In this document: positions 6,290 through 63,064 of the stretch, in pieces | Numbering within the stretch: position 1 is the first letter of the stretch | Layout of the letters: every line of letters starts with the position of its first letter | NCBI RefSeq assembly: GCF_029892605.1 | Contig: NZ_JARXWF010000008.1 | Span: 1 to 64,000, forward strand | Direction: 5' to 3' | Source of the DNA: Parabacteroides sp. PM6-13 | Lineage (GTDB): Bacteria; Bacteroidota; Bacteroidia; Bacteroidales; Tannerellaceae | Length of the DNA stretch: 64,000 bases | The notes under the pieces: generated by a model | What the model saw: the letters and a program-made list of their open reading frames with translations, nothing else | Databases searched by the model: none | What the model was told of the DNA's origin: nothing | Program-made: the position numbers and the translations under genes

Positions 6290-6296
6290 ATAAATG

Positions 6297-6370
6297 AAGA
6301 ATGAGGGATGAAGAATGAAGAATTTTAAGATTCTTCGATTCCTCATTCTTCATTCTTCATTCTTCATTCT
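6297..6370. terminator. REP-like palindromic hairpin (gaatgaagaat repeats), bidirectional terminator between gdhA and the Lrp gene
   Basis: Imperfect inverted repeat of gaagaatga(g)ggatgaagaat / attcttcattc. The same motif family recurs at 43326..43379. Confidence 0.55.
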
Positions 6371-6372
6371 CT

Positions 6373-6834
6373 TCAGATTCCCACCCCATAACCATGCTTC
6401 AACTCTGCCATGACAAACGTGCTGGTCAGCGAACCTAAGCTCTCGATCGTGCCCAGAACATTCAGGATAAACGCCTGGTAGTATTTCATGTCCGGCGCAT
6501 GGATCTTCAGTAGAAAGTCATACTCTCCCGACACATTGTAACACTCGGTCACCTCAGGAATCTCCTGTATGATACGGGAAAATTCGGCAGCGATATCGCG
6601 GTTGAGCCTCCTCAATTTGACACTACAAAAAACCACAAACCCGAGGTTTAGCTTGTCGGCATCCAATATAGCTACATACTTCTTGATATACCCCTCTCCT
6701 TCCAAGCGTTTCAAACGCTCGAATACCGGGGTGGTCGACAGATTCACCTGTCCCGCCAGCTCCTTGGTGGTCAGCTTGCAATTGTTTTGCAAAATGCGCA
6801 AAAGCTGTAAGTCAATTTTATCCAACGTCTCCAT
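6373..6834 (-). CDS. Lrp/AsnC family transcriptional regulator
   Basis: 153 aa. N-terminal HTH (DLQLLRILQNNCKLTTKELAGQVNLSTTPVFERLKRLE) plus a C-terminal RAM/ACT-like domain. Confidence 0.85.
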   Translation of the reverse strand: METLDKIDLQLLRILQNNCKLTTKELAGQVNLSTTPVFERLKRLEGEGYIKKYVAILDADKLNLGFVVFCSVKLRRLNRDIAAEFSRIIQEIPEVTECYNVSGEYDFLLKIHAPDMKYYQAFILNVLGTIESLGSLTSTFVMAELKHGYGVGI

Positions 6835-9328: not shown

Positions 9329-9402
9329 GGGGCATTAGCTCATCTGGCTAGAGCGTTAGACTGGCAGTCTAAAGGTGATCGGTTCGAGTCCGATATGCTC
9401 CA
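9329..9402 (+). tRNA. tRNA-Ala (anticodon GGC)
   Basis: Manual cloverleaf. Acceptor GGGGCAU/AUGCUCC, D-stem GCUC/GAGC, anticodon stem UUAGA/UCUAA with loop CUGGCAG, T-arm AUCGG-UUCGAGU-CCGAU. CCA not encoded. Confidence 0.85.
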
Positions 9403-26462: not shown

Positions 26463-26532
26463 TGAACCGGCAGTTGAAACTGCCGGCAAGAGATAGGCCT
26501 GCGGCCACTCACTCTGTTCGCAGAGAAGAGAG
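26463..26532. repeat. solo IS-terminus-like repeat with palindrome ccggcagttgaaactgccgg (copy A)
   Basis: About 52 bp near-identical to 32004..32070 and related to the left terminus of the IS at 27511..27555. Confidence 0.7.
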
Positions 26533-26615
26533 ATGTGCACCATTTGGGAGAAAAAAACATCCATGACCTTGCGCATGCGACTAAAAATAGTTACATTTGT
26601 ATAAACAATCAAGCC

Positions 26616-26879
26616 ATGACAGCAAAAGACAAGTTGATAACTCGCTTTAAGACTTTGCCTAAAGACTTCACCTATGAGGAATTGTGCAAGCTCTTGAAAG
26701 GGTTTGGATTTGAGAAAAGCAACAAGGGTAAGACGTCTGGCTCTCGTGTCCGCTTTATTAACTCAGAAAGCAATACTATTATAGATTTGCACAAACCTCA
26801 TCCCGGTAGCACTATGAAAGAGGGAGCTTTGAAAGATGTTTATGTTAAGCTTGTTTTGAATGGTTTTATAAATAAATAA
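26616..26879 (+). CDS. hicA: type II toxin HicA family (mRNA interferase)
   Basis: GSRVRFINSESNTIIDLHKPHPGSTMKEGALKDVYVKL matches the HicA GSH...H motif. Followed by HicB. Confidence 0.65.
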   Translation: MTAKDKLITRFKTLPKDFTYEELCKLLKGFGFEKSNKGKTSGSRVRFINSESNTIIDLHKPHPGSTMKEGALKDVYVKLVLNGFINK

Positions 26880-26896
26880 TAGGAGGTGAAATTATT

Positions 26897-27241
26897 ATGG
26901 ATAATTTGGAATACAAAGGATACTTTGGAAGTGTCGAATATAACAAAACAGACGATTGCCTGGTTGGTAAAGTTCTTGGCATGAGCAAAGATTCTATCAC
27001 CTATGAGGGAAAGGATATTACAGAACTCAAAGCCGATTTTGAGGCAGGAATAGACAGCTATATTGAAGGATGTGAAGAATTAGGCATTAAGCCGAGAAAA
27101 GCCTTTAGCGGCTCTCTAAATGTGCGCATTTCATCCGAAATACATAGCCGGGTTGCTATGCTTGCGGAAAAAGCGGGTATTTCGATTAATGCTTTCATCA
27201 AAGAAACATTGGAGGAAAAAGTTTCAACTGCCGGCTTTTAA
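26897..27241 (+). CDS. hicB: type II antitoxin HicB family
   Basis: N-terminal HicB fold (YKGYFGSVEYNKTDDCLVGKV) and a C-terminal RHH-like DNA-binding tail (ISINAFIKETLEEK). Confidence 0.65.
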   Translation: MDNLEYKGYFGSVEYNKTDDCLVGKVLGMSKDSITYEGKDITELKADFEAGIDSYIEGCEELGIKPRKAFSGSLNVRISSEIHSRVAMLAEKAGISINAFIKETLEEKVSTAGF

Positions 27242-27510
27242 GTTTGCCATTCTCATAAATATGATCTATATACCCTCCTATATGGTCTATAAAGATCTCT
27301 TTCGAGTGGGCATATTTGCGGATATGCGTATAGAGTTCATACCGATGATGTGAGTTTTGCAAATAGGGAATCCTGTTTTTAGTAATCCAGACACAATGAA
27401 TAGGAATAGATAAGTAAGGCATAGTTTTTGGTTTTGTGTTAATGACATAAATATAGGAATAATATTGTTTAAACAAATTGCACACTATACACCTCTTTAG
27501 AGCAAGCGAA

Positions 27511-29333
27511 GCAAGTGGCCGCAGGCCTATCTTTTGCCGGCAGTTTCAGAGACTGTGTAAAAAACCATATTCACCATGCCTGCCTGTAGTGCTTGCGTAG
27601 TGTACACGCATAAAAAGATGAGAGCGTGAGCCACCGGTTCATTCTTAACAATAACCTTGTGTCTCATTTTTGAGGGAGAGCCTGCTTGGACAAATGATTT
27701 TCCAAAGTATATTTTGCTCTTTTCCGACAAAAAAGGCTCCCCAGAGTATGTTTTTTGCCTTTTGGGCATAATTTGCTATTCTTTCCAATAATTTGGACAT
27801 GTCTTCTATATTCATCAAGCGCTTGAGGTTATAGCAAGATGCGTACAAGTCTATTTCAGCCTGTACTTTTCTTTTGCCTGTCAATAGGAGTGGGACTTTG
27901 CCCATCCACCGTTTCATGGTTCCAAAAATATGTTCGATATGATCCTTCCTTTCTTTGATAAGAGCCTGGTATTTTTCTGTCTCCATGCGCTTCGCATATT
28001 CCTCCCGGAAGGGATCCTGTATCTTGACTTTCAGTCGCCTACCATTTCTAAATGTGGTACATCTTCCAAATAAAGCACAATGCCTGCAATCGGAGGCTTT
28101 AGCTTGATAAATAAGATATTCAGCACTCTCTTGCTTGACATTCTTTGGCTTGCGTTTCAATAATTTTCCTTTGCTGCAAGTGTAGCTATCTGTGGACTGG
28201 TCATATCTAAATTCAACGCCTGCTTTCTTGTCATGACTACTTGAGGTCCCTTCTTTCAATGGTATAGCGCAAGATGTTATCCCGTTTGATTCGATGGATT
28301 TGATTTGATCAATATTATCATATCCTTTATCGGCTTCTACTATTTCGGGAACAAGGCCCAGTTGCTCTTTGGTCTTGTTTACATTATTTTCAATACAGTC
28401 TAGGTCAATCACATCGGGAGTCAACTCGGCTAAAACAATCATTTTATGTTTAGCATCTGTTCCGCCTTGAAGGTTGTAAGCGGGAATAAATCCGTCCCGG
28501 CTTTTCATCAAGTGGGCATCCGGATCTGTAGGACAATAACTGCTATGATCACTCTGTTTGATTTGACTCTTAATTTCTTCCAGCTCTTTTATCTTTTGCC
28601 GCAGACTGACGATTTCTTCCAACAAAGATTTATTGATATCCGCGCTCAGTTCACAGCTATCGAGTGCTTCGGTCAGTTCGTCTGTGTGATCATTGTTGTT
28701 TAACTCAGAAAGCCAAGTATGTAATTGGTCTTCCATTTTCTTTATGCGACTAGACAATGCCTTCTCTGTTAAAACCTTTTCTTTAGAAACACATGCCTTT
28801 ATTTTACTCCCGTCATAAATAATCTTTTCTCCACTGATAAAACCTTCGTCGCGCAAAAAGCGGCGAAAACTCAGCGTTACGTAACGAATTGCTTCTGTAT
28901 TATCTTTACGATAGTCCGCAATTGTTTTATGGTCAGGGTGAAGATCATGCAACAACCATTTTACTTCGATATTGCGATAGGTTTCAGATTCCAATCGACG
29001 ACTACTGCTTATCCGATTTAAATAACCATACAGATACAGTTTCAGTAAATCACAAGGATGGTATGACTTACGACCTTTTTCTTTGGTGCCTCTATATTGA
29101 AACTTTTCCGGGGATTGCCCATAAAGCATCTCAACCAAAGCATCTATCAGGCGAACGTAATTCTGTTCACCGATACTCTCGTCAAGGGTATTGAAAAGAG
29201 AGGCTTGATGGCGAGAAACGCCAGTTTTGTAATGCATAGCTGTTGTTTGTTTGTCTGAATAAATGTAAGAAATTTTATCCAATTTAGCTAATTTGCCACA
29301 ATGCATTTTTACACAGTCTCTTCAACTGCCGGA
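27511..29333. mobile_element. IS1182-family insertion sequence
   Basis: Single 553-aa DDE transposase flanked by imperfect inverted termini (27511..27555 and 29311..29333, cacagtctct..aactgccgg). Confidence 0.65.
27645..29306 (-). CDS. IS1182-family transposase (DUF772 N-domain + DDE)
   Basis: SYHPCDLLKLYLYGYLNRISSSRRLE is the IS5/IS1182 N-terminal domain. DDE region downstream. Possible alternative start at Met24. Confidence 0.8.
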   Translation of the reverse strand: MHCGKLAKLDKISYIYSDKQTTAMHYKTGVSRHQASLFNTLDESIGEQNYVRLIDALVEMLYGQSPEKFQYRGTKEKGRKSYHPCDLLKLYLYGYLNRISSSRRLESETYRNIEVKWLLHDLHPDHKTIADYRKDNTEAIRYVTLSFRRFLRDEGFISGEKIIYDGSKIKACVSKEKVLTEKALSSRIKKMEDQLHTWLSELNNNDHTDELTEALDSCELSADINKSLLEEIVSLRQKIKELEEIKSQIKQSDHSSYCPTDPDAHLMKSRDGFIPAYNLQGGTDAKHKMIVLAELTPDVIDLDCIENNVNKTKEQLGLVPEIVEADKGYDNIDQIKSIESNGITSCAIPLKEGTSSSHDKKAGVEFRYDQSTDSYTCSKGKLLKRKPKNVKQESAEYLIYQAKASDCRHCALFGRCTTFRNGRRLKVKIQDPFREEYAKRMETEKYQALIKERKDHIEHIFGTMKRWMGKVPLLLTGKRKVQAEIDLYASCYNLKRLMNIEDMSKLLERIANYAQKAKNILWGAFFVGKEQNILWKIICPSRLSLKNETQGYC

Positions 29334-32003: not shown

Positions 32004-32070
32004 CAAGCAGTTTCAACTGCCGGCAAGAGATAGGCCTGCGGCCACTCACTCTGTTCGCAGAGAAGAAGCG
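32004..32070. repeat. solo IS-terminus-like repeat (copy C) with palindrome gcagtttcaactgc
   Basis: aactgccggcaagagataggcctgcggccactcactctgttcgcagagaaga is shared with 26463..26532. Confidence 0.7.
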
Positions 32071-41805: not shown

Positions 41806-43317
41806 ATGAAAAAAGTCTTTACCACCGTGCTGTTTGCCTTGCCGCTTACTCTACTGGCGCAAACAGCAAGCATCCGCGTCAACACGGAGCGGATTATCGG
41901 AGAAATCGACCCGAAAATTTATGGGGTGTTTATGGAACCTATCGGACGCGACACGGTGTTTCCGATAACTAACAATCTGTACGGTCCGCTCTATGACCCT
42001 GCCTCGCCACTGGCTAATGAGGATGGTTTTAAAACCAACTACATCGATGCCATGCGGGAGTTGAAGATCACGAATATGCGTTGGCCGGGCGGAAACTATA
42101 TCGCGAGTTATGACTGGCGCGACGGGATTGGGCCGAAAGCCGATCGTCCTGTCCGGAAAGACCTGGCTTGGGGTGGCTACGAAACGAACCATGTCGGCAC
42201 CGATGAGTGGATCAAATTGAACAAAGCCATCGGCAGTGAGAATGTAATCTGCCTCAACCTCGGACTGGGTGATGTGAACAACGCCCGTTTCTGGATCGAA
42301 TACACCAACATCTCCAGTGGAACCTACTACTCCGACCTGCGCATAAAATATGGCAATACGGAGCCTTATAAGGTGAAATACTGGTGTATCGGCAACGAGG
42401 TAGACGGACAGCCCTGGATCAACGGCTATAAGAACGCGGAAGACTATTGCAAAATCGGCCTGGAAGCGGCCAAAGCGTTGAAGAATGTAGACAACTCCAT
42501 CCAGTTGATTGCTAATGGTTCTTCCTATTATGAACCGACAGGTGTCTGGGTCGACTGGAACCGCCAGGTGGTGAATGCCTTTACGGGGGTAGCCGATTAT
42601 CTCTCGATCCACCGCTATTGGGGTGAAAAGATTTCCACCGACTATTATAACTTCATGGGCGAAGCGGCAATGGATTTCGAAGAAAAGATAACCACTGCCG
42701 CGGCACAGATCCGTATTGCCCAATCGCTCTATCCGGAGAAAACGCCCTTGAAGCTATCGGTCGATGAGTGGGCTGCCCGGGGAAGCGATATCAAAGGCGT
42801 ACTGGCCAATGCGATGTGTTTGAATTCATTCGTTCGTCACGCGGATATCGTGAAGATGGCCAACTTCACCATGATGACCTCGCTGTTGGCTACCGACAAA
42901 GATAAAGGGACTTATAAGTCGCCGCTGTTTTATGCCTATAAATTGTTCTCCAATAATTGTCACGGGAAAACGGTCGATGCCTATGTGGCATGCGAAACCT
43001 TCGACGCAGGACGTTTCTCGGATATTCCTTACCTGGATGTGACCAGCGTCTATTCCGAAGCGACCGGCACGGTGTATATCAACGTAATCAACCGTCACCA
43101 GGACAAAGGCATTAAGACAGAGATCGAAGATGTAAAAGGCGCGTTTACCGGCAAGGCAGCGGTTTCTCTGATATATGGGGAGTTGGGCGATAACTTCTCG
43201 TACGACAAGCAGGATAAGTATACCCCAAAAACAGAAGAGATCAGCCTGAAAAACAACAAGCTGACCTATACCTTCCCGGCACATTCCTTTACGCAGATTG
43301 CCGTTAAGGTGAAATAA
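41806..43317 (+). CDS. alpha-L-arabinofuranosidase, glycoside hydrolase family 51
   Basis: Signal peptide. YGVFMEPIGR N-terminus. WCIGNEVDG catalytic acid/base motif. C-terminal beta-sandwich. Confidence 0.8.
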   Translation: MKKVFTTVLFALPLTLLAQTASIRVNTERIIGEIDPKIYGVFMEPIGRDTVFPITNNLYGPLYDPASPLANEDGFKTNYIDAMRELKITNMRWPGGNYIASYDWRDGIGPKADRPVRKDLAWGGYETNHVGTDEWIKLNKAIGSENVICLNLGLGDVNNARFWIEYTNISSGTYYSDLRIKYGNTEPYKVKYWCIGNEVDGQPWINGYKNAEDYCKIGLEAAKALKNVDNSIQLIANGSSYYEPTGVWVDWNRQVVNAFTGVADYLSIHRYWGEKISTDYYNFMGEAAMDFEEKITTAAAQIRIAQSLYPEKTPLKLSVDEWAARGSDIKGVLANAMCLNSFVRHADIVKMANFTMMTSLLATDKDKGTYKSPLFYAYKLFSNNCHGKTVDAYVACETFDAGRFSDIPYLDVTSVYSEATGTVYINVINRHQDKGIKTEIEDVKGAFTGKAAVSLIYGELGDNFSYDKQDKYTPKTEEISLKNNKLTYTFPAHSFTQIAVKVK

Positions 43318-43325
43318 ATACAAAT

Positions 43326-43379
43326 GAAAAATGAGGAATGAAGAATATCAACCAATTCTTCATTCCTCATTCTTCATTT
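43326..43379. terminator. REP-like hairpin (17-bp perfect stem aatgaggaatgaagaat), bidirectional terminator
   Basis: Sits between convergent GH51 and binding-protein genes. Same motif family as 6297..6370. Confidence 0.55.
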
Positions 43380-44322
43380 AATAAGCGTACTTCTTATTCT
43401 GCCCTACATTCTCTTTATTGATAAGCGTCGCGGGCATAACGATTCGTTTTTCTTCCGGTTGTTTTCCATCCAACAGGTCGGCGGCGATATCAATACATTT
43501 GCTGATCATGGCCGGGGAATAAAGCGTCGTGGCCAGATCCACATCACGCACCTGCTCAATGTATTCCAGGTAGGTCTGTGCTCCACCACAGCCAACCACC
43601 ACCTTCACCTGGTGTTCGCCGACTGCTTTTAAGGCATCATATACCCCCATGGCAATCTCATCATCCTGTGCATAGATCGCCTCTACCTCCGGGTGTTCTT
43701 TCAACAACGCCAAGGTTCTCGCTTTCCCTTCGTTATAGGAGTATTTCTCTACTTCCCAATCGATCACGGAAGTCGCAGGGCTGTTTTCACGGAATGCCTG
43801 CTTGAAAGCCGTCACCCGCTGGTTGCTGGAGGCAGGGTCTTGCGCGACAGCGAATACAGCCACACTGCCTACCTGCTTATCTGCCACATAGACTCCGGCA
43901 TTGCGCCCGGCACCTACGTTATCGCCCTGAACAAGGGCTGTATAATCCACATCCAAGGCCTCCTCGAACAGGATCACCGGGATACGGCGTTTGATGGCCA
44001 CATTCACCTCGGCCAGGTCAAGACCCGGCTCGGGAGAAAGCACGATGACACGTACGCCCGAATTGATTACCATCTGAAGCTGCTCGGCCTGCTCCTCCGC
44101 GTTCTTCGCGCTGGTGAGGTAATAAGGTTTCAGGTTATGTTCAAGCAAACCACTCTGCGCATATAAAGCCATGGCTGCCCGCCAATCGTTGGATAAATGT
44201 TTCAGGTTGACACTGATTTCAGGTGCCCCCTTTTCATCATCATCGTTATCACAAGAGGTAAACACTACACCCGCTACTACTGAGACAGCTATTAAAGCCA
44301 TTACTTTCCAAATTGTCTTCAT
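43378..44322 (-). CDS. periplasmic sugar-binding (LacI/RbsB-type PBP) lipoprotein
   Basis: Lipobox VVFTSCDNDDD. Periplasmic binding protein type I fold motifs. Confidence 0.65.
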   Translation of the reverse strand: MKTIWKVMALIAVSVVAGVVFTSCDNDDDEKGAPEISVNLKHLSNDWRAAMALYAQSGLLEHNLKPYYLTSAKNAEEQAEQLQMVINSGVRVIVLSPEPGLDLAEVNVAIKRRIPVILFEEALDVDYTALVQGDNVGAGRNAGVYVADKQVGSVAVFAVAQDPASSNQRVTAFKQAFRENSPATSVIDWEVEKYSYNEGKARTLALLKEHPEVEAIYAQDDEIAMGVYDALKAVGEHQVKVVVGCGGAQTYLEYIEQVRDVDLATTLYSPAMISKCIDIAADLLDGKQPEEKRIVMPATLINKENVGQNKKYAY

Positions 44323-44431
44323 ACTTTTTCTTTTTTAAATTAAACGTAATTTGTAAGGTTTGTACAGGTATAACACTCCCCCGTTTGAAATGGTTTAATG
44401 GGATCATCCTGGCATATGGTGGGGGTATCAG

Positions 44432-44476
44432 GTTGAAGAAGTTGAAAGTTGAAAGTTGAAAATTGAAAATTGAAAC
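44432..44476. repeat. tandem heptamer (gttgaaa)n microsatellite
   Basis: ggttgaagaagttgaaagttgaaagttgaaaattgaaaattgaaac. Confidence 0.7.
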
Positions 44477-44575
44477 AACGTTCGCTTAGCGCAGCGTAAA
44501 GCAAAATGAAGGAAAAGGAGAAAGGGGAAGTGTTTTCAAATTTTGGAAAATTGGAAGGAACGGAGATATAAATGG

Positions 44576-44892
44576 CTGAAAGCCACAATGGGCCTGAAGG
44601 GCCGAGTTCCGGAGGGACGAAGACTTAGCCCATGGGTAAGCAGACTGAAAGTCTGCGTCACCCTGGGTTTAGAGGGTATATAAATAATGAGTTCTGAAGG
44701 AACGAAAGAAGAAATCCACTATTCACAGGCGCTATCACCATATATCCTATGATACTATCTATCGTTCCTTCAGAACTCGATTTCTTGTATTGTCATGATA
44801 CCCAGGGTAGCGCAGACCTCCGGTCTGCTTACCCATGGGCTAAGTCATCGTCCCTCCGGGACTCGGCCTTCCAGGCCCGCTGTGACTTTCAG
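44576..44892. repeat. 317-bp nested imperfect palindrome (outer arms about 70 bp, inner perfect 17-bp IR gagttctgaaggaacga)
   Basis: Outer arms 44576..44645 and 44823..44892 are near-perfect reverse complements. Inner IRs at 44651..44668/44800..44817 and 44690..44706/44762..44778. Confidence 0.8.
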
Positions 44893-45013
44893 CCATATAA
44901 AGAGAATCTTCCCCTTTTCTCCAATTTGAATTCAGTACCTATTGCGAATAAATAAAAAAAGCGTTTCCCATAGTTGTTGGGAAACGCTTTATATAGATAA
45001 GAAAATTGTCTAC

Positions 45014-45532
45014 TTAAAAATGGAAAGAGATACCTGCACTCAGGTAGGCAGCTCCGTAACCCAGTTCCGAATAAACGGCTACATTGGGTGAGAAGTAGTA
45101 GCGAGCACCGGCATACAAGCCCGGCAGGAATACGTTGTCCGCGCTACCGGAAACAGAGGTCTCGCCGTCGTAAGAGCTTGACGCAACATTATAACCGACC
45201 ATCAAACCGGCGTACGTATCCAGTTTTTCTACAAACTGATAGTGGAAAGCACCACGCACACCAAACACAAAGTGGTTGTAATTCCATTTCACACCACCAT
45301 ACTTTTCCGAATCGCCATACCAGGCAAAATAGCCTCCGATACCGATCGAGCCGTTTTCTCCTTTGATCAGATTGTCTTTGATGCAATGCTCATAAGAGGC
45401 TTCGATAGGGAAGTAATTACCTCCTAAACCGATACCTACATTAACATTGTTACTCCCTTTAGAAAATACATCTTGCGCCTGAACGGTTAAGGTTGCCAGC
45501 AACAAGGCAAATGCCAAAAATACTTTTTTCAT
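45014..45532 (-). CDS. outer-membrane beta-barrel protein (OmpA-like porin family)
   Basis: Signal peptide. Alternating amphipathic beta strands. C-terminal aromatic residue (F). Confidence 0.6.
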   Translation of the reverse strand: MKKVFLAFALLLATLTVQAQDVFSKGSNNVNVGIGLGGNYFPIEASYEHCIKDNLIKGENGSIGIGGYFAWYGDSEKYGGVKWNYNHFVFGVRGAFHYQFVEKLDTYAGLMVGYNVASSSYDGETSVSGSADNVFLPGLYAGARYYFSPNVAVYSELGYGAAYLSAGISFHF

Positions 45533-45580
45533 ACTTAAACAATTAAGTGATTATTAAATAGATGTAGAGTTTCCTTTCTT

Positions 45581-48500
45581 TCAACGATTTGCTTCAATCC
45601 ATTTGCGGGCATTTACGAAGGCTTCCATCCACGGAGTCACTTCGTCGGCCTTGCGATCAGCCGGGTAATAGCCACACTGCCACGGGAACACGGCGCGCTC
45701 CGGATGAGGCATGATAGAGAGGTGGCGACCATCGGCCGAAGCAACGCCGGCAACCGACCAGGGCGATCCGTTCGGATTGGCAGGATACCCTTCATAGTTA
45801 TATTTAGCTACCACGTTGTATTGCTTTTCTTCATACGGGAAAGCGAACTTACCTTCACCGTGCGCTACCCACGCGCCGATCTTTGATCCGCTCAGGGAGC
45901 CGAACATCACCGAGTTGTTTTTCGGGATCTCCAGTGTAACGAAGTTGGATTCAAACTTATGCGAGTCGTTGAATACCATCTTATGTTTCACCTCATGTTC
46001 GGGATAGAGCACTTCGAGCTCGGCCATCAATTGGCAACCATTACAAATACCCATACTCAAGGTGTCCTTGCGGGCATAATAGTTGTCGATCGCCTTTTTC
46101 GCCCGTTCGTTGTAGAGGAAGCCACCGGCCCATCCTTTGGCAGAGCCCAATACGTCGGAGTTAGAGAAACCACCCACAAAGATGATCATATTCACATCCT
46201 CCAATGTTTCACGTCCGCTTGCCAGGTCGGTCATGTGTACGTCCTTCACATCAAAGCCGGCCAGGTAGAGAGCATACGCCGTTTCGCGTTCACACTGCGA
46301 TCCCTTTTCGCGGATTACAGCCGCTTTCACGCCACTCCGTTCCTTGCGGTCGGCCGAAAGGCCTAAATCAGCCAGGCGTCCGGTAAAGTTTTTGTTGTAT
46401 TTGAATTCCAACGGTTGCATCTTATAGTTCTCAAAACGATTGCCAGCACAAAGGCTTCCGCTCTGCTTTCTATCCAACTGGTAAGAGGATTGATACCACA
46501 CATCGCGCATATAATCGATACCGAAGTGGTATTCCACGCCGTTCTTAGCCACCAAGATATGGCGCTCTGTCGTCGGTTTAGCGATAGCGGCAAAGCCAAC
46601 GCCACATTCCGTCATCAGTTGTTCGAACGCTTTCTTGTCTTTCACCTGCACCAGAATACCCGGGTTCTCAGCAAACAGGATCTTCATCAGATCTTCTTCC
46701 GCTACCTTATTCAGGTCGACTTCCAAGCCACCCTCTACGTTAGCAAAACACATCTCCAACAGAGCCGTGATCATACCACCGGCAGAGATATCGTGTCCGG
46801 CGAGGATCAGCCCATTTTCGATCGCCTCCTGAACAGCATTAAACGCGTCCGCGAAGTATTCCGAATCTTTCACCGTTGGCACCTCGTCGCCGATACGGTT
46901 CAATACCTGTGCAAAAGCAGAACCGCCCAGTTTCAGGGTATCGAAAGAGAAATCGATATAATAGACTGTCGTATTGTTTTCTTTGGCAAGCACCGGCGAC
47001 ACGATCTTCTTCACATCGCTCACCTCACCGGCAGCAGAGATAATCACCGTTCCCGGAGAGATCACCTTTTCCTGCCCGTATTTCTGTGTCATCGACAGGG
47101 AGTCTTTTCCGGTCGGTATGTTGATACCCAACGCAATGGCAAAGTCCGAACAGGCTTGTACCGCCTTGTACAAACGGGCATCTTCTCCTTCGTTGCGGCA
47201 AGGCCACATCCAGTTGGCACTCAACGACACGCCAGTCAGCTGATCGCTCAACGGAGCAAACACCAGGTTGGTCAACGACTCAGCAATCGCCATCACCGAA
47301 CCGGCCGCCGGATCAACCATCGCTACCTGCGGAGCATGCCCAATCGAGGTGGCAATTCCTGCTTTTCCTCTGTAATCGAGTGCCACAGCGCCCAGGTCGC
47401 TCAATGGCAACTGCAATTCACCCTGGCATTGCTGGCGGGCTACCTTACCTGTTACCGAACGGTCGACCTTATTGGTCAGCCAATCCTTACAGGCAACGGC
47501 TTCCAGTTGAAGCACATTCTCCAGGTAATGATGTATTTCAGATTCTTTGTAAACCACCGGTTGGTAGGCCTCATCCAGTGTATGGTCGACCATAACTGTC
47601 TTCGGCGCTTTGCCAAACATGTATTCCAGTTTCAGGTCGATGGGCTTTTCGCCGTCCGCCTGTTTGAATACCAAGGCCATATCGTTTGTTGTTTCCCCTA
47701 CCACATACATCGGAGCGCGTTCGCGTTCGGCAATGCGTTGGATACGTTCCACATCCTTTTCTTTCATCAGAAGCCCCATACGTTCCTGGCTTTCATTGCC
47801 AATGATCTCTTTGGCAGAAAGCGTCGGATCGCCGATAGGCAGTTTATCCATTTCGATTACCCCACCGGTTGCTTCGATCAATTCGGACAAACAGTTAAGG
47901 TGTCCGCCAGCTCCGTGGTCGTGGATTGAAATGATCGGGTTTTCATCGGCTTCCGCAATGGTACGGATCACGTTGGCTGCTCTCTTCTGCATCTCCGGAT
48001 TGGCACGCTGTACGGCGTTCAATTCAATGCCGCTGGCATACTGTCCGGTGTCGACCGAAGAAACAGCGCCTCCACCCATACCGATACGGTAGTTGTCACC
48101 ACCGATCACCACCACCTTTTCACCCGGTTCGGGATCGCCTTTCAACGCATCGCGTTTATTAGCAAAACCAACACCACCGGCCAGCATGATGACCTTGTCG
48201 TATCCATATTTCTTATTGTTTTCTTCGTGTTCGAAGGTCAGAACCGAACCACAGATCAGCGGTTGCCCGAAATGGTTCCCGAACTGCGATGCTCCGTTGG
48301 AGGCCTTGATCAGGATCTGTTCCGGTGTTTGATACAACCAACGGCGGGGATCCATATATTGTTCCCATTCGCGGGCGCCTTCCGTGCGCGGGTAAGAGGT
48401 CATGTAAACCGCCGTCCCTGCCATCGGCAAAGAGGCCTTTCCGCCAGCCAGACGGTCGCGAATCTCACCTCCCGAACCGGTAGATGCGCCATTGAAGGGC

Positions 48501-49264
48501 TCCACAGTGGTGGGGAAGTTATGCGTTTCCGCTTTCAGGGAGATCACGGTTTCGATCTCTTTGGTGGCGTAATAATCGGGCTTGTCTCCCGAAAGCGGAG
48601 CGAACTGCTCCATCTTCGGCCCTTCATTAAACGCTACATTATCTTTATAGGCCGATACCAATTTATTGGGATTCTCTTTCGAGGTTTTCTTGATCAGATT
48701 GAACAGGCTGCTTTCCATCTCCACCCCGTCGATCACGAAGGTACCACCGAATATCTTATGGCGACAGTGTTCGGAATTCACCTGCGCGAATCCATACACC
48801 TCGCTATCAGTCAGCTTACGATTCAATTTCTCACTTATTTCGTTCAGATAAGCCACCTCATCTTCGCTCAACGCCAGCCCTTCCTGTTCGTTGTAAGCCA
48901 CAATATCCTCAATATAGACAATCGGATCCGGCTTTTTGTTGATCGTGAATATCTCCTGATCCAACCCGTTATAGATGCGTTGCAACATCGGGTCATGATC
49001 CGCCTCCTTGCCGGAGACAGGGAAATATTCTTCAATACGCGAAATACCGGGCACCCCCATGTTTTGGGTGATCTCAACGGCGTTGGTACTCCAGGGCGTG
49101 ATCATTTCACGACGAGGGCCTACAAACCAGCCGTCTAAGGTGTCTACCTCTAATGGGGTCGCATTGCCAAACGCCCACACCAGTTTTTGGATATTTTCGG
49201 AAGAGAATGGTTGAGCTGCCTCAACAGCCAATACAGAACCGGAAGATCTGAAAAATAGAATCAT
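45581..49264 (-). CDS. purL: phosphoribosylformylglycinamidine synthase (single-chain FGAM synthase)
   Basis: 1227 aa. AIR-synthase-related domains and a C-terminal class I glutamine amidotransferase (GICNGCQ). Confidence 0.95.
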
Positions 49265-58723: not shown

Positions 58724-58930
58724 TAAATCCCGCAGGGATTTCCTATTCGTAACCCTCGGTAAGAGAGCGAAGCGAACGACCGGGGGTATTCCGCTAATAA
58801 TAACTAATGAACCCGGAATGGGTTCAACCCGCTTCGGGGTTGCTTGGAGAGTAGGTCTTGTCTATCTGCCTACCACGGGTTTGCTTCGCTACACCCGCGG
58901 TTACGAATAGGAAATCCCTGCGGGATTTAT
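58724..58930. repeat. imperfect palindrome (about 50-bp arms, taaatcccgcagggatttcctattcgtaacc...)
   Basis: Arms 58724..58777 and 58879..58930 are near-perfect reverse complements. Confidence 0.8.
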
Positions 58931-58945
58931 ATGAAAATCTTCCAA

Positions 58946-59213
58946 TTTTGGAAGATTCCCAAGGAGCGCTGCAAGCGCGATTCAACCCAGCCCATGGGTG
59001 ACCGAAGGGAACCCTGGGTGGTTTAGGTTAAAGTAAATGGAACTCTGAAAGAGTGACTATTAGGTATTTGTGTATATAGTCGTTCTTTGGCTAAGGCCGA
59101 TCTTCGATTCAGAACTCCATTATTATTATACTCTGATACCCAGGGTTCCCTTCGGTCACCCATGGGCTGGGTTGAACCGCGCTTACAGCGCTCTGTGGAA
59201 ACCTTCAATTTTT
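58946..59213. repeat. imperfect palindrome (about 72-bp arms sharing agcccatgggt...accctgggt motif with the 44.6-kb element)
   Basis: Arms 58949..59026 and 59138..59210. Produces mirror-image ghost ORFs (ERCKR.STQPMGDRREPWV on both strands). Confidence 0.8.
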
Positions 59214-59597
59214 CTCCCACTTGAAGATCCGCATCCATCAGAATAATCATATTAAATTAAATCAAACCAATCACATCCGGAAAATCCCAAAATCAGCGTA
59301 TTGCTCCCTTCGGAAGCGAACGGTGTTTCAAGGTTCAGACATTTTATCATTTTGTCAAAATCGCCCGACTTTTTTTCCGAAAACGTAGGGGTTTTTAAAA
59401 TTAGTCCTGCGAGTAACACTTTTTAACGTATCATATTGTAAAGCAAAATGGCGATTTTGCTTACACTTTGTATTTTGACATTTTCCTTCGGAGGGGGTTT
59501 CATCCCCTACCCCTTATGCCTAATTATTCACTCTTCATTCATCATTCTTCATCGGAATGGCTATCTTTGCACACAGAAGACAGCAAACGCATTCTGC

Positions 59598-62913: not shown

Positions 62914-63064
62914 CTGACTAATAATTAAAACTCTAATGGGCGTCAAAATTACATAAACACCCCTTTAATGCCAAGAAGAATTCGTATTTTTGCCTGGTAA
63001 TACCAACTGTTGGCAGTTGATATTACCGGAATCCATTATCAATTATCAATTGTCAATTTAATAA

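Follow-up and report, generated by a model that had tools for sequence, protein, structure and literature searches.

The window, the whole stretch of 64,000 nucleotides of Parabacteroides sp. PM6-13 analysed here, carries a large imperfect palindrome, named E1, in the 691-bp spacer between two genes. Downstream of E1, a minus-strand gene (43378-44322) codes for a member of the periplasmic-binding-protein family (Pfam Peripla_BP_4). The upstream gene codes for a protein of 172 amino acids without a Pfam match. Its intrinsic terminator is located at 44958-44990 on the minus strand. An earlier note on this DNA had named the neighbours as a binding-protein lipoprotein gene and an outer membrane protein gene; Pfam agrees with the first annotation and provides no match for the second. 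The five neighbours scanned against Pfam comprise the binding protein, a Chlam_PMP-repeat protein, an arabinofuranosidase, PurL and the 172-aa protein of no known family. No recombinase was among them. In a terminator test on E1, the sole strong terminator-like site was the one at 44958-44990 (minus strand), which falls outside the inverted-repeat body (44517-44922); a weak 6-bp terminator-like site coincides with the outermost hairpin of E1, H1. The promoter motif TAnnTTTG is absent from both strands of E1 and of two related composites in the window, E2 and E3.

The palindrome is real and extends further than the 317 bp (44576-44892) first assigned to it, with self-complementarity running past both ends. 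The inverted-repeat search located the main arms at 44569-44668 and 44800-44899. They are 100 nt long, where about 70 bp had been proposed, 87% complementary and 131 nt apart. An inner inverted repeat measures 21 nt (44689-44709 / 44758-44778, 95% complementary); the earlier note had listed inner repeats of 17-18 bp. A weaker outer repeat lies at 44526-44557 / 44908-44939, and weaker pairing reaches 44517/44922. The single-strand fold of 44500-44950 has a free energy of -250.5 kcal/mol compared with -125 kcal/mol for shuffled sequences (z = -19.7), which is beyond chance. The arms have a G+C content of 58-63% in a window of 45.6% G+C.

A heptad microsatellite near E1, also recorded in the earlier note, was read from the sequence at 44431-44476 on the plus strand, with about six GTTGAAA/ATTGAAA-like copies. 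Its link to E1 is uncertain because heptad arrays are common in the intergenic DNA of the window. Microsatellites with a 7-nt period and differing units are located at 1778-1813, 6293-6370, 43355-43378, 44432-44475 and 63031-63058. The array at 6293-6370, between convergent genes, is itself palindromic, with AATGAAG repeats facing ATTCTTC repeats. A TTSAAAC heptad run in a Limisphaerales locus (L009, approximately 6620-6650), some 300 nt from a foldback pair of units, recalls the GTTGAAA run beside E1 and may be a coincidence. The only Rfam match at the gathering threshold in the window is a tRNA gene (9329-9402), which starts a 1.2-kb stretch without a called gene.

Modular anatomy of E1, E2 and E3

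Each arm of E1 is a directional unit and not merely half a palindrome. On its own strand, the unit consists of the hairpins H1 and H2, hairpin A (GUUCC-gga-GGGAC in E1), a linker, the core with hairpin B, a spacer of about 22 nt in E1 and hairpin C (GUUC-ugaag-GAAC in E1). The core is a 9-bp G+C-rich helix, AGCCCAUGGGU...ACCCUGGGU, with one bulged U. It encloses the variable hairpin B. The linker between hairpin A and the core comprises 8-11 nt (8 nt in E1) and ends in YAG. The 5' foot of the helix is GTAG in Bryobacterales copies, immediately 5' of the helix, ATAG or GTAG in Terracidiphilus, TTAG in E1, CCAG in E2 and GTAA in E3.

The left arm of E1 is one sense unit (44574-44712, plus strand). 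H1 (44574-44584), H2 (44590-44603), hairpin A (44606-44618) and the linker (44619-44626) precede the core (44627-44668), whose 9-bp helix with one bulged T is formed by AGCCCATGGGT (44627-44637) and ACCCTGGGT (44660-44668) around hairpin B (44640-44656). Hairpin C follows at 44691-44703. After a non-conserved central spacer (44713-44755), the right arm provides the second unit on the minus strand (44756-44894), with hairpin C at 44764-44776, the core at 44800-44841, then the linker and hairpin A (44850-44862), H2 at 44865-44878 and H1 at 44883-44894. The inverted-repeat search also paired two outer segments, GGAGAAAGGGGAAG at 44517-44530 (plus) and CTTCCCCTTTTCTCC at 44908-44922 (minus). On one side only, E1 has a tail at 44464-44487 (minus strand), adjoined by the palindrome GCTTAGCGcaGCGTAAAGC (44482-44500), which was read by eye from the sequence without folding.

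Four occurrences of the pattern CCCATGGGT N(4-34) ACCCTGGG are present in the window, with zero expected from shuffles: in both arms of E1 (44.6-44.8 kb) and in both arms of E2 (58.99-59.17 kb). The earlier note was correct in seeing a common core in the palindromes at 58.9-59.2 kb. E2 is an inverted pair at 58944-59213 with cores at 58989-59019 (plus) and 59138-59168 (minus). The covariance model R1, which covers hairpin A, the linker and the core, was built with E3 left out, and every position of the window was scored. R1 singled out exactly six sites, the arms of three inverted pairs. In E1, it matched 44599-44671 on the plus strand with 46 bits and 44797-44869 on the minus strand with 47 bits. 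E3, a diverged third composite with perfect 31-nt terminal inverted repeats (58724-58929), was found with E values of 0.015 and 0.1; the next best match in the window had an E value of 1.8. The E3 cores, AACCCTCGGT..ACCGGGGGT on the plus strand and AACCGCGGGT..ACCCGTGGT on the minus strand, keep the helix by compensatory changes.

E1 and E2 share more than the R1 region. The spacer and hairpin C region, an outer TTTTGGAA-type repeat and the one-sided tail are common to both; blastn aligned the E1 tail to an inverted segment beside E2 (59314-59337, plus strand) with 87.5% identity over 24 nt. Because of these common parts, E1 and E2 are copies of the same asymmetric element, about 450-550 bp in size, and lie in opposite orientations.

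The differences between copies preserve local hairpins. Between the two arms of E1, hairpin B shows a compensatory U-A to C-G change, which keeps the local hairpin and leaves the long foldback mismatched and weakened. Single transitions in H1 and hairpin A result in G-U pairs in the sense orientation of each arm. The two E3 cores are unlike each other and unlike the canonical core, and each is fully paired; the G-U pair at the helix base becomes A-U. Among 10 natural core variants from four phyla, 96.7% of the cells are paired and 4/9 pairs change on both sides. In hairpin A, 98.6% of the cells are paired and 5/5 pairs covary. Both counts lean toward structure as the two alignments were registered by hand before pairs were counted. 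MAFFT with RNAalifold did not bring hairpin A into register. What is under selection is the set of local hairpins in each arm and not the long palindrome. Over five phyla, a 20-nt core stays the same and the other hairpins vary. Sense and antisense strands of the unit have similar minimum free energies and fold about equally well, and decayed Bryobacterales copies have 5 G-U vs 6 A-C mispairs. Neither observation points to a strand; both are as expected of DNA repeats, not of a strand-specific RNA.

Empty sites and mobile DNA in the window

In two sister Parabacteroides genomes, PFB2-10 (L107) and OttesenSCG-928-J18 (L117), the same two genes are separated by 153 bp, compared with 691 bp in the window. 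The binding protein of PFB2-10 is 92% identical to that of the window, and the one of OttesenSCG-928-J18 belongs to the same 90%-identity cluster. Alignment with PFB2-10 and a Logan contig (L108) defined a lineage-specific insert of approximately 540-550 bp at 44401-44952 that contains the whole of E1. About 13 nt stand in its place in the sister genomes. On both sides of the insert, the terminator and the promoter-proximal DNA align with 85% nucleotide identity. A more distant relative has the same surrounding synteny as the sister genomes, which makes the state of the window the derived one.

No target-site duplication was found at the junctions set by alignment to the two empty sites, and the borders are outside the inverted repeat, which starts 116 bp and 22-30 bp inside them. 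Since the insert borders do not coincide with the ends of the inverted repeat, the indel of about 550 bp may comprise more than one event, and the lack of a duplication is a weak argument. In independent short-read assemblies of two close strains, contigs stop at 44502 and 58717, exactly where E1 and E3 have their edges. For the E2/E3 site, a relative with 68% identity has another arrangement of neighbours and offers no clean empty-site comparison.

The wider neighbourhood also differs. In the comparison of 41806-49264 with L107, L117 and L110, only the two-gene block of the 172-aa gene and the binding-protein gene is syntenic. It is flanked by PurL and the arabinofuranosidase in the window and by Gate/YbeY/GidA and GerE/hemerythrin/RelA in the sisters. 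As both flanks differ from the sister genomes, the block seems to sit at rearrangement breakpoints.

A second repeat occurs elsewhere in the window, at the remnant of a transposase gene. A truncated IS200-like Y1 (HUH) transposase is encoded on the minus strand at 27198-27485; Pfam PF01797 matches its N-terminal half only, with 25.9 bits. The locus is bracketed by 56-nt inverted multi-hairpin repeats (26475-26530 / 27493-27548). Their grammar of an 8-bp hairpin, an 8-nt linker and a TAG-footed GC hairpin is the same as that of E1, and neither R1 nor Rfam detected homology to E1-E3. A third, orphan copy between convergent genes (32015-32046) is identical to the left arm in 32/32 nt. The Y1-flanking repeat is a second REP-like family in this genome. 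Beside the remnant are a HicB-family gene (26897-27241, PF05534) and an upstream ORF (26535-26879) without an NCBIfam match, and 26475-27548 as a whole looks like a REPtron/TIRtron-like locus. A 553-aa DDE transposase (DDE_Tnp_1_6 / DUF772) is encoded directly beside it (27645-29306), forming a small cluster of mobile DNA.

The remnant lends circumstantial support to a Y1 route, as it shows that Y1-type systems exist in this genome; it does not follow that the remnant moved E1. A homologue search with the truncated fragment retrieved only the same truncated gene in a close strain. When all fetched loci and the window were screened with a regex for the motif, no unit had a HUH-Y1 ORF beside it. 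Y1 transposase subclasses of Bacteroidetes and Acidobacteria are reported to be flanked by 'atypical secondary structures' (PMC6006769, PMC3733652).

Relatives of the unit in other genomes

A scan of species-representative genomes found the exact core in at least 104 stretches. A minority are chance matches inside genes of Pseudomonas and others; the remaining matches are intergenic units of the same grammar. A single 7.1-Mb Bryobacterales contig has at least 54 exact-core copies. Units were also present in Terracidiphilus, Limisphaerales, Chthoniobacteraceae, an unclassified Verrucomicrobiia MAG, Hydrogenedentota and Nitrospirales, and a unit of about 100 bases recurs in at least five bacterial phyla. 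Core variants include bulge-less cores and a compensatory GGC/GCC variant.

The Bryobacterales copies are intergenic and have about 180 nt in common and no more. Among the matches listed, no neighbouring gene is constant across them. The units lie in the sense of the upstream gene in 47 cases vs 18 in the opposite sense, and in 19 convergent vs 6 divergent spacers, each among the matches listed. For the matches listed on the 7.1-Mb contig, a replichore test revealed no switch in orientation, and local GC skew was only weakly associated with orientation (19/54). Hairpin C varies in three Bryobacterales loci (L008, L012 and L057), where its loop carries an extra hairpin (ATCTTGCCATATGGCAAGA) or runs into a different shared sequence. 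These forms are sub-variants or nested insertions.

DDE insertion sequences are abundant near the units in Bryobacterales. As partners of the units, IS1595, IS4-like elements, a group II intron reverse transcriptase and pseudouridine synthase were rejected; they occur near units without a fixed distance or orientation. Units adjoin genes of pseudouridine synthases (S4 + PseudoU_synth_2) in Bryobacterales and Terracidiphilus (L010, L037, L082, L097 and others), an adjacency that may be due to chance.

In other genomes, units are arranged singly, as head-to-tail tandems or as inverted pairs. Tandem arrays are present in L065, with a period of 80 nt, L025 and L067. In L065, hairpin C of one unit doubles as hairpin A of the next. 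Inverted pairs with two differing cores were found in L064, L067 and L009. By analogy, the tandem arrays and the inverted pairs of differing cores can be regarded as a BIME-like mosaic.

Other searches returned no further relatives. An E1-specific 19-mer had no match in metagenomes. The pattern of core plus TCTGAA retrieved only Hydrogenedentota and one high-GC contig, and no further Bacteroidota copy. No plasmid matched the element in blastn, a single match on a viral contig looks like chance, and a literature search with the core sequence found primer coincidences only.

At the gathering threshold, Rfam identified only tRNAs in the window and 12 loci. The known self-cleaving ribozymes and riboswitches of Rfam 15 gave no match at E values up to 10 over E1 and up to 1 over E2/E3. 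Below threshold, cmscan aligned one family consistently, Acido-Lenti-1 (RF01687, gathering score 37 bits). E1 has four symmetric matches (23.5, 19.1, 15.6 and 14.5 bits) and E2 has two (23.6 and 23.1 bits). A Bryobacterales unit scored 28.6 bits. In the Limisphaerales locus L009, a canonical unit has an inverted partner that reached 35.7 bits. The alignments comprise CCCA/UGGGCUA, the linker and CGUCCCUCCGGGACU, with the first hairpin interrupted by extra structure. All matches are on the strand opposite to the reading of the unit favoured by G-U pairs.

Weinberg et al. described Acido-Lenti-1 in 2010 on the basis of 89 copies from Acidobacteria and Lentisphaerae and noted that it is "sometimes near group II introns" (PMC2864571 and supplement). 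It is a candidate sRNA with no known function (Rfam; PMC2864571). Matches have been reported in Tannerella, of the same family as the host of the window (bioRxiv 10.64898/2026.02.09.704811). The units resemble the motif in the GC hairpin, the sequence ...GGCUA followed by a linker of 9-12 nt and a second hairpin of 5 bp with a 3-nt loop, in being multi-copy in Acidobacteria and PVC bacteria and in having no fixed gene association. The alignments agree with the layout of the motif, two hairpins on either side of a linker of about 12 nt with GGCUA after the first. The units differ in having, in place of the first hairpin, a longer, bulged helix around one more variable hairpin, and in the further hairpins C, H1 and H2. 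The evidence on the units points to a mobile repeat, unlike the classification of Acido-Lenti-1 in Rfam as a candidate sRNA. The units are thus expanded relatives of Acido-Lenti-1, and by the curated test they are not members.

Nature of the repeat

E1 is real and non-coding, a foldback composite made up of a repeat of hairpin modules that is widespread. It reads as a foldback mobile element on account of the repeat family and of its absence from the orthologous site in two sister genomes, and it is probably mobile. Of the three candidate identities in the earlier note, a foldback or MITE-like mobile element fits best, although E1 is not a textbook MITE, as neither a target-site duplication nor terminal inverted repeats were seen at the borders. 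The favoured identity is a selfish, non-autonomous repeat akin to REP/BIME-REPIN elements that a Y1 (HUH) transposase may move, with a probability of roughly 0.55.

REP sequences and their RAYT transposases are treated in PMC3116915, PMC3733652 and PMC6006769. Like the units, REP, BIME and REPIN sequences are short, imperfect palindromes that have a bulge and lie outside genes. Their conserved 5' foot, GTAG/GTGG, is approached by some of the units, and their tens to hundreds of copies per genome are paralleled in Bryobacterales. They are found as single copies, as inverted doublets able to fold into one long hairpin and as mosaic arrays. They generate no target duplication and prefer 3' ends of genes and convergent spacers. 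Among the units, doublets folding into one hairpin are E1, E2, E3, L064, L067 and L009. At least 54 copies lie on the one Bryobacterales contig, and three composites are visible in the 64-kb window of the source genome. The units differ from REPs and REPINs by their greater length, by having several hairpins and by a YAG foot that is not strictly GTAG. No cognate RAYT was found beside a unit in the fetched loci or the window. REPs normally co-vary with the RAYT of their lineage, unlike the 20-nt core of the units, which is common to several phyla.

The ends of IS200/IS605 elements, their gene-less derivatives (PATEs) and integron attC sites are recognised as folded single strands. The likeness of the units to them is a structural analogy only: a conserved helix, an extrahelical base and a variable distal stem-loop, and similar hairpins at the two ends of a unit. 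Unlike in these systems, neither tnpA/tnpB nor intI is associated with the units. The attC sites have a conserved sequence, e.g., GTTRRRY, which the units lack.

In the proposed course of events, E1, composed of two inverted copies of a directional unit of about 100-140 nt plus the one-sided tail, landed in neutral DNA that separates a terminator from the promoter region that follows. The unit may be recognised as a single strand, on the lagging-strand template or as other ssDNA, by an enzyme encoded in trans. The most plausible candidate would be a RAYT/TnpA(IS200)-type Y1 HUH transposase able to copy or move the unit without target duplication. Inverted doublets such as E1 may arise like the doublets of REPs (REPINs/BIMEs). 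Resident hairpin clusters may secondarily affect neighbouring transcripts, e.g., by protection of 3' ends. Several observations sit less easily with a selfish REP-like repeat. In the fetched loci and the window, no transposase gene has the units on its flanks, and the Y1 remnant is bracketed by another repeat. Metagenome and plasmid searches yielded no additional Bacteroidota copy, and the matches listed for Bryobacterales show no strand switch linked to the replichores. The invariance of the 20-nt core across five phyla is not obviously expected of a fast-evolving selfish repeat, and the orientation bias toward the upstream gene in Bryobacterales (47 vs 18 among the matches listed) could reflect a role at the RNA level.

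The second candidate of the earlier note, a large structured RNA, keeps some plausibility for the units, whereas nothing backs the 317-nt hairpin as a functional fold. The unit could be a functional structured RNA, either an sRNA related to Acido-Lenti-1 or an element that acts in cis at 3' ends to protect or terminate the transcripts from upstream. The palindrome would then be two convergent copies. A functional RNA is possible but rather unlikely. The strong covariation in the helices of core and hairpin A, the 20-nt core unchanged across phyla, the Acido-Lenti-1 matches of up to 35.7 bits vs 37 bits (L009), the G-U pair at the helix base turning into A-U in E3 and the stem transitions between the E1 arms that yield G-U in sense orientation would all suit an RNA, as would the position of the Bryobacterales units listed, mostly downstream of co-oriented genes and more in convergent than divergent spacers. 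Yet E1 is located downstream of an intrinsic terminator and without a recognisable Bacteroidetes promoter motif, both strands fold equally well, and decayed copies show no preference for G-U over A-C. The Rfam orientation is opposite to the one favoured by G-U pairs, and no known ribozyme or riboswitch matched E1 at E values up to 10. Repeats, and not an sRNA gene, are also typified by what is seen here: dozens of nearly identical copies in one genome, arrays both tandem and inverted, and presence or absence between sister genomes.

Descent from a DDE-transposase insertion sequence by deletion, with cut-and-paste movement via terminal inverted repeats, would make E1 a classical MITE. MITEs such as Correia, Nezha and RPE-type elements are small, non-coding, intergenic, capable of foldback and polymorphic between strains. 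E1 shares these properties, with a size of about 400-550 bp, long inverted arms, an intergenic site and an insertion polymorphism. DDE insertion sequences are at hand in the window (27645-29306) and abundant near Bryobacterales units. Such a descent is nevertheless improbable: the inverted repeats are off the insertion borders, a target-site duplication is lacking, and in most phyla the unit is single or head-to-tail, with single-orientation and tandem forms dominating, rather than a pair of terminal inverted repeats. No insertion sequence with the same ends was found, the IS1595, IS4-like and reverse transcriptase genes near units have no fixed geometry, and the divergence of the arms preserves local hairpins, not arm-to-arm identity.

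An inverton controlling the downstream binding-protein gene is very improbable. Its appeal lies in the position upstream of a gene and in the long inverted repeats flanking a 131-bp segment, and the earlier note had listed an invertible segment as its third candidate. This proposal finds no support: TAnnTTTG is missing from E1 and E2/E3, and the Pfam-scanned flanking genes include no recombinase. The native promoter-proximal DNA is conserved outside E1 and present in genomes without E1. The centre is nearly palindromic, so inversion changes little, and the same units are single and in tandem elsewhere. Chance, an assembly artefact or an inverted duplication of purely local origin can be dismissed as the source of the palindrome. 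Short-read assemblies do break at E1, as an artefact might suggest, but membership in a cross-phylum family and the compensatory differences between the arms exclude these origins; foldback artefacts do not make imperfect arms (87%) with such differences. The fold (z = -19.7) and the three related composites in the window also speak against chance, which the earlier note had already considered unlikely.

Through the REP-like reading, the long palindromes at which short-read assemblies of Parabacteroides-like genomes break acquire a concrete identity. The reading ties them to an Rfam motif that has had no known function since 2010 and suggests that Acido-Lenti-1, too, is a mobile repeat of the REP type and not an sRNA acting in trans. 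A single feature, the sameness of the 20-nt core in different phyla, is hard to explain by ordinary repeat biology. Acido-Lenti-1 and the palindromes might form one cross-phylum superfamily of folded single-strand elements, in which the 20-nt bulged helix, invariant amid hairpins that all covary, docks a conserved partner, either a new class of REP-type transposase or a host factor or RNA function. This idea is speculative and doubtful; if true, the partner would keep the core constant from Acidobacteriota to Bacteroidota. The combination of hairpin, linker, YAG foot and bulged helix defines a testable substrate in the search for an enzyme that mobilises repeats of this sort outside Proteobacteria.
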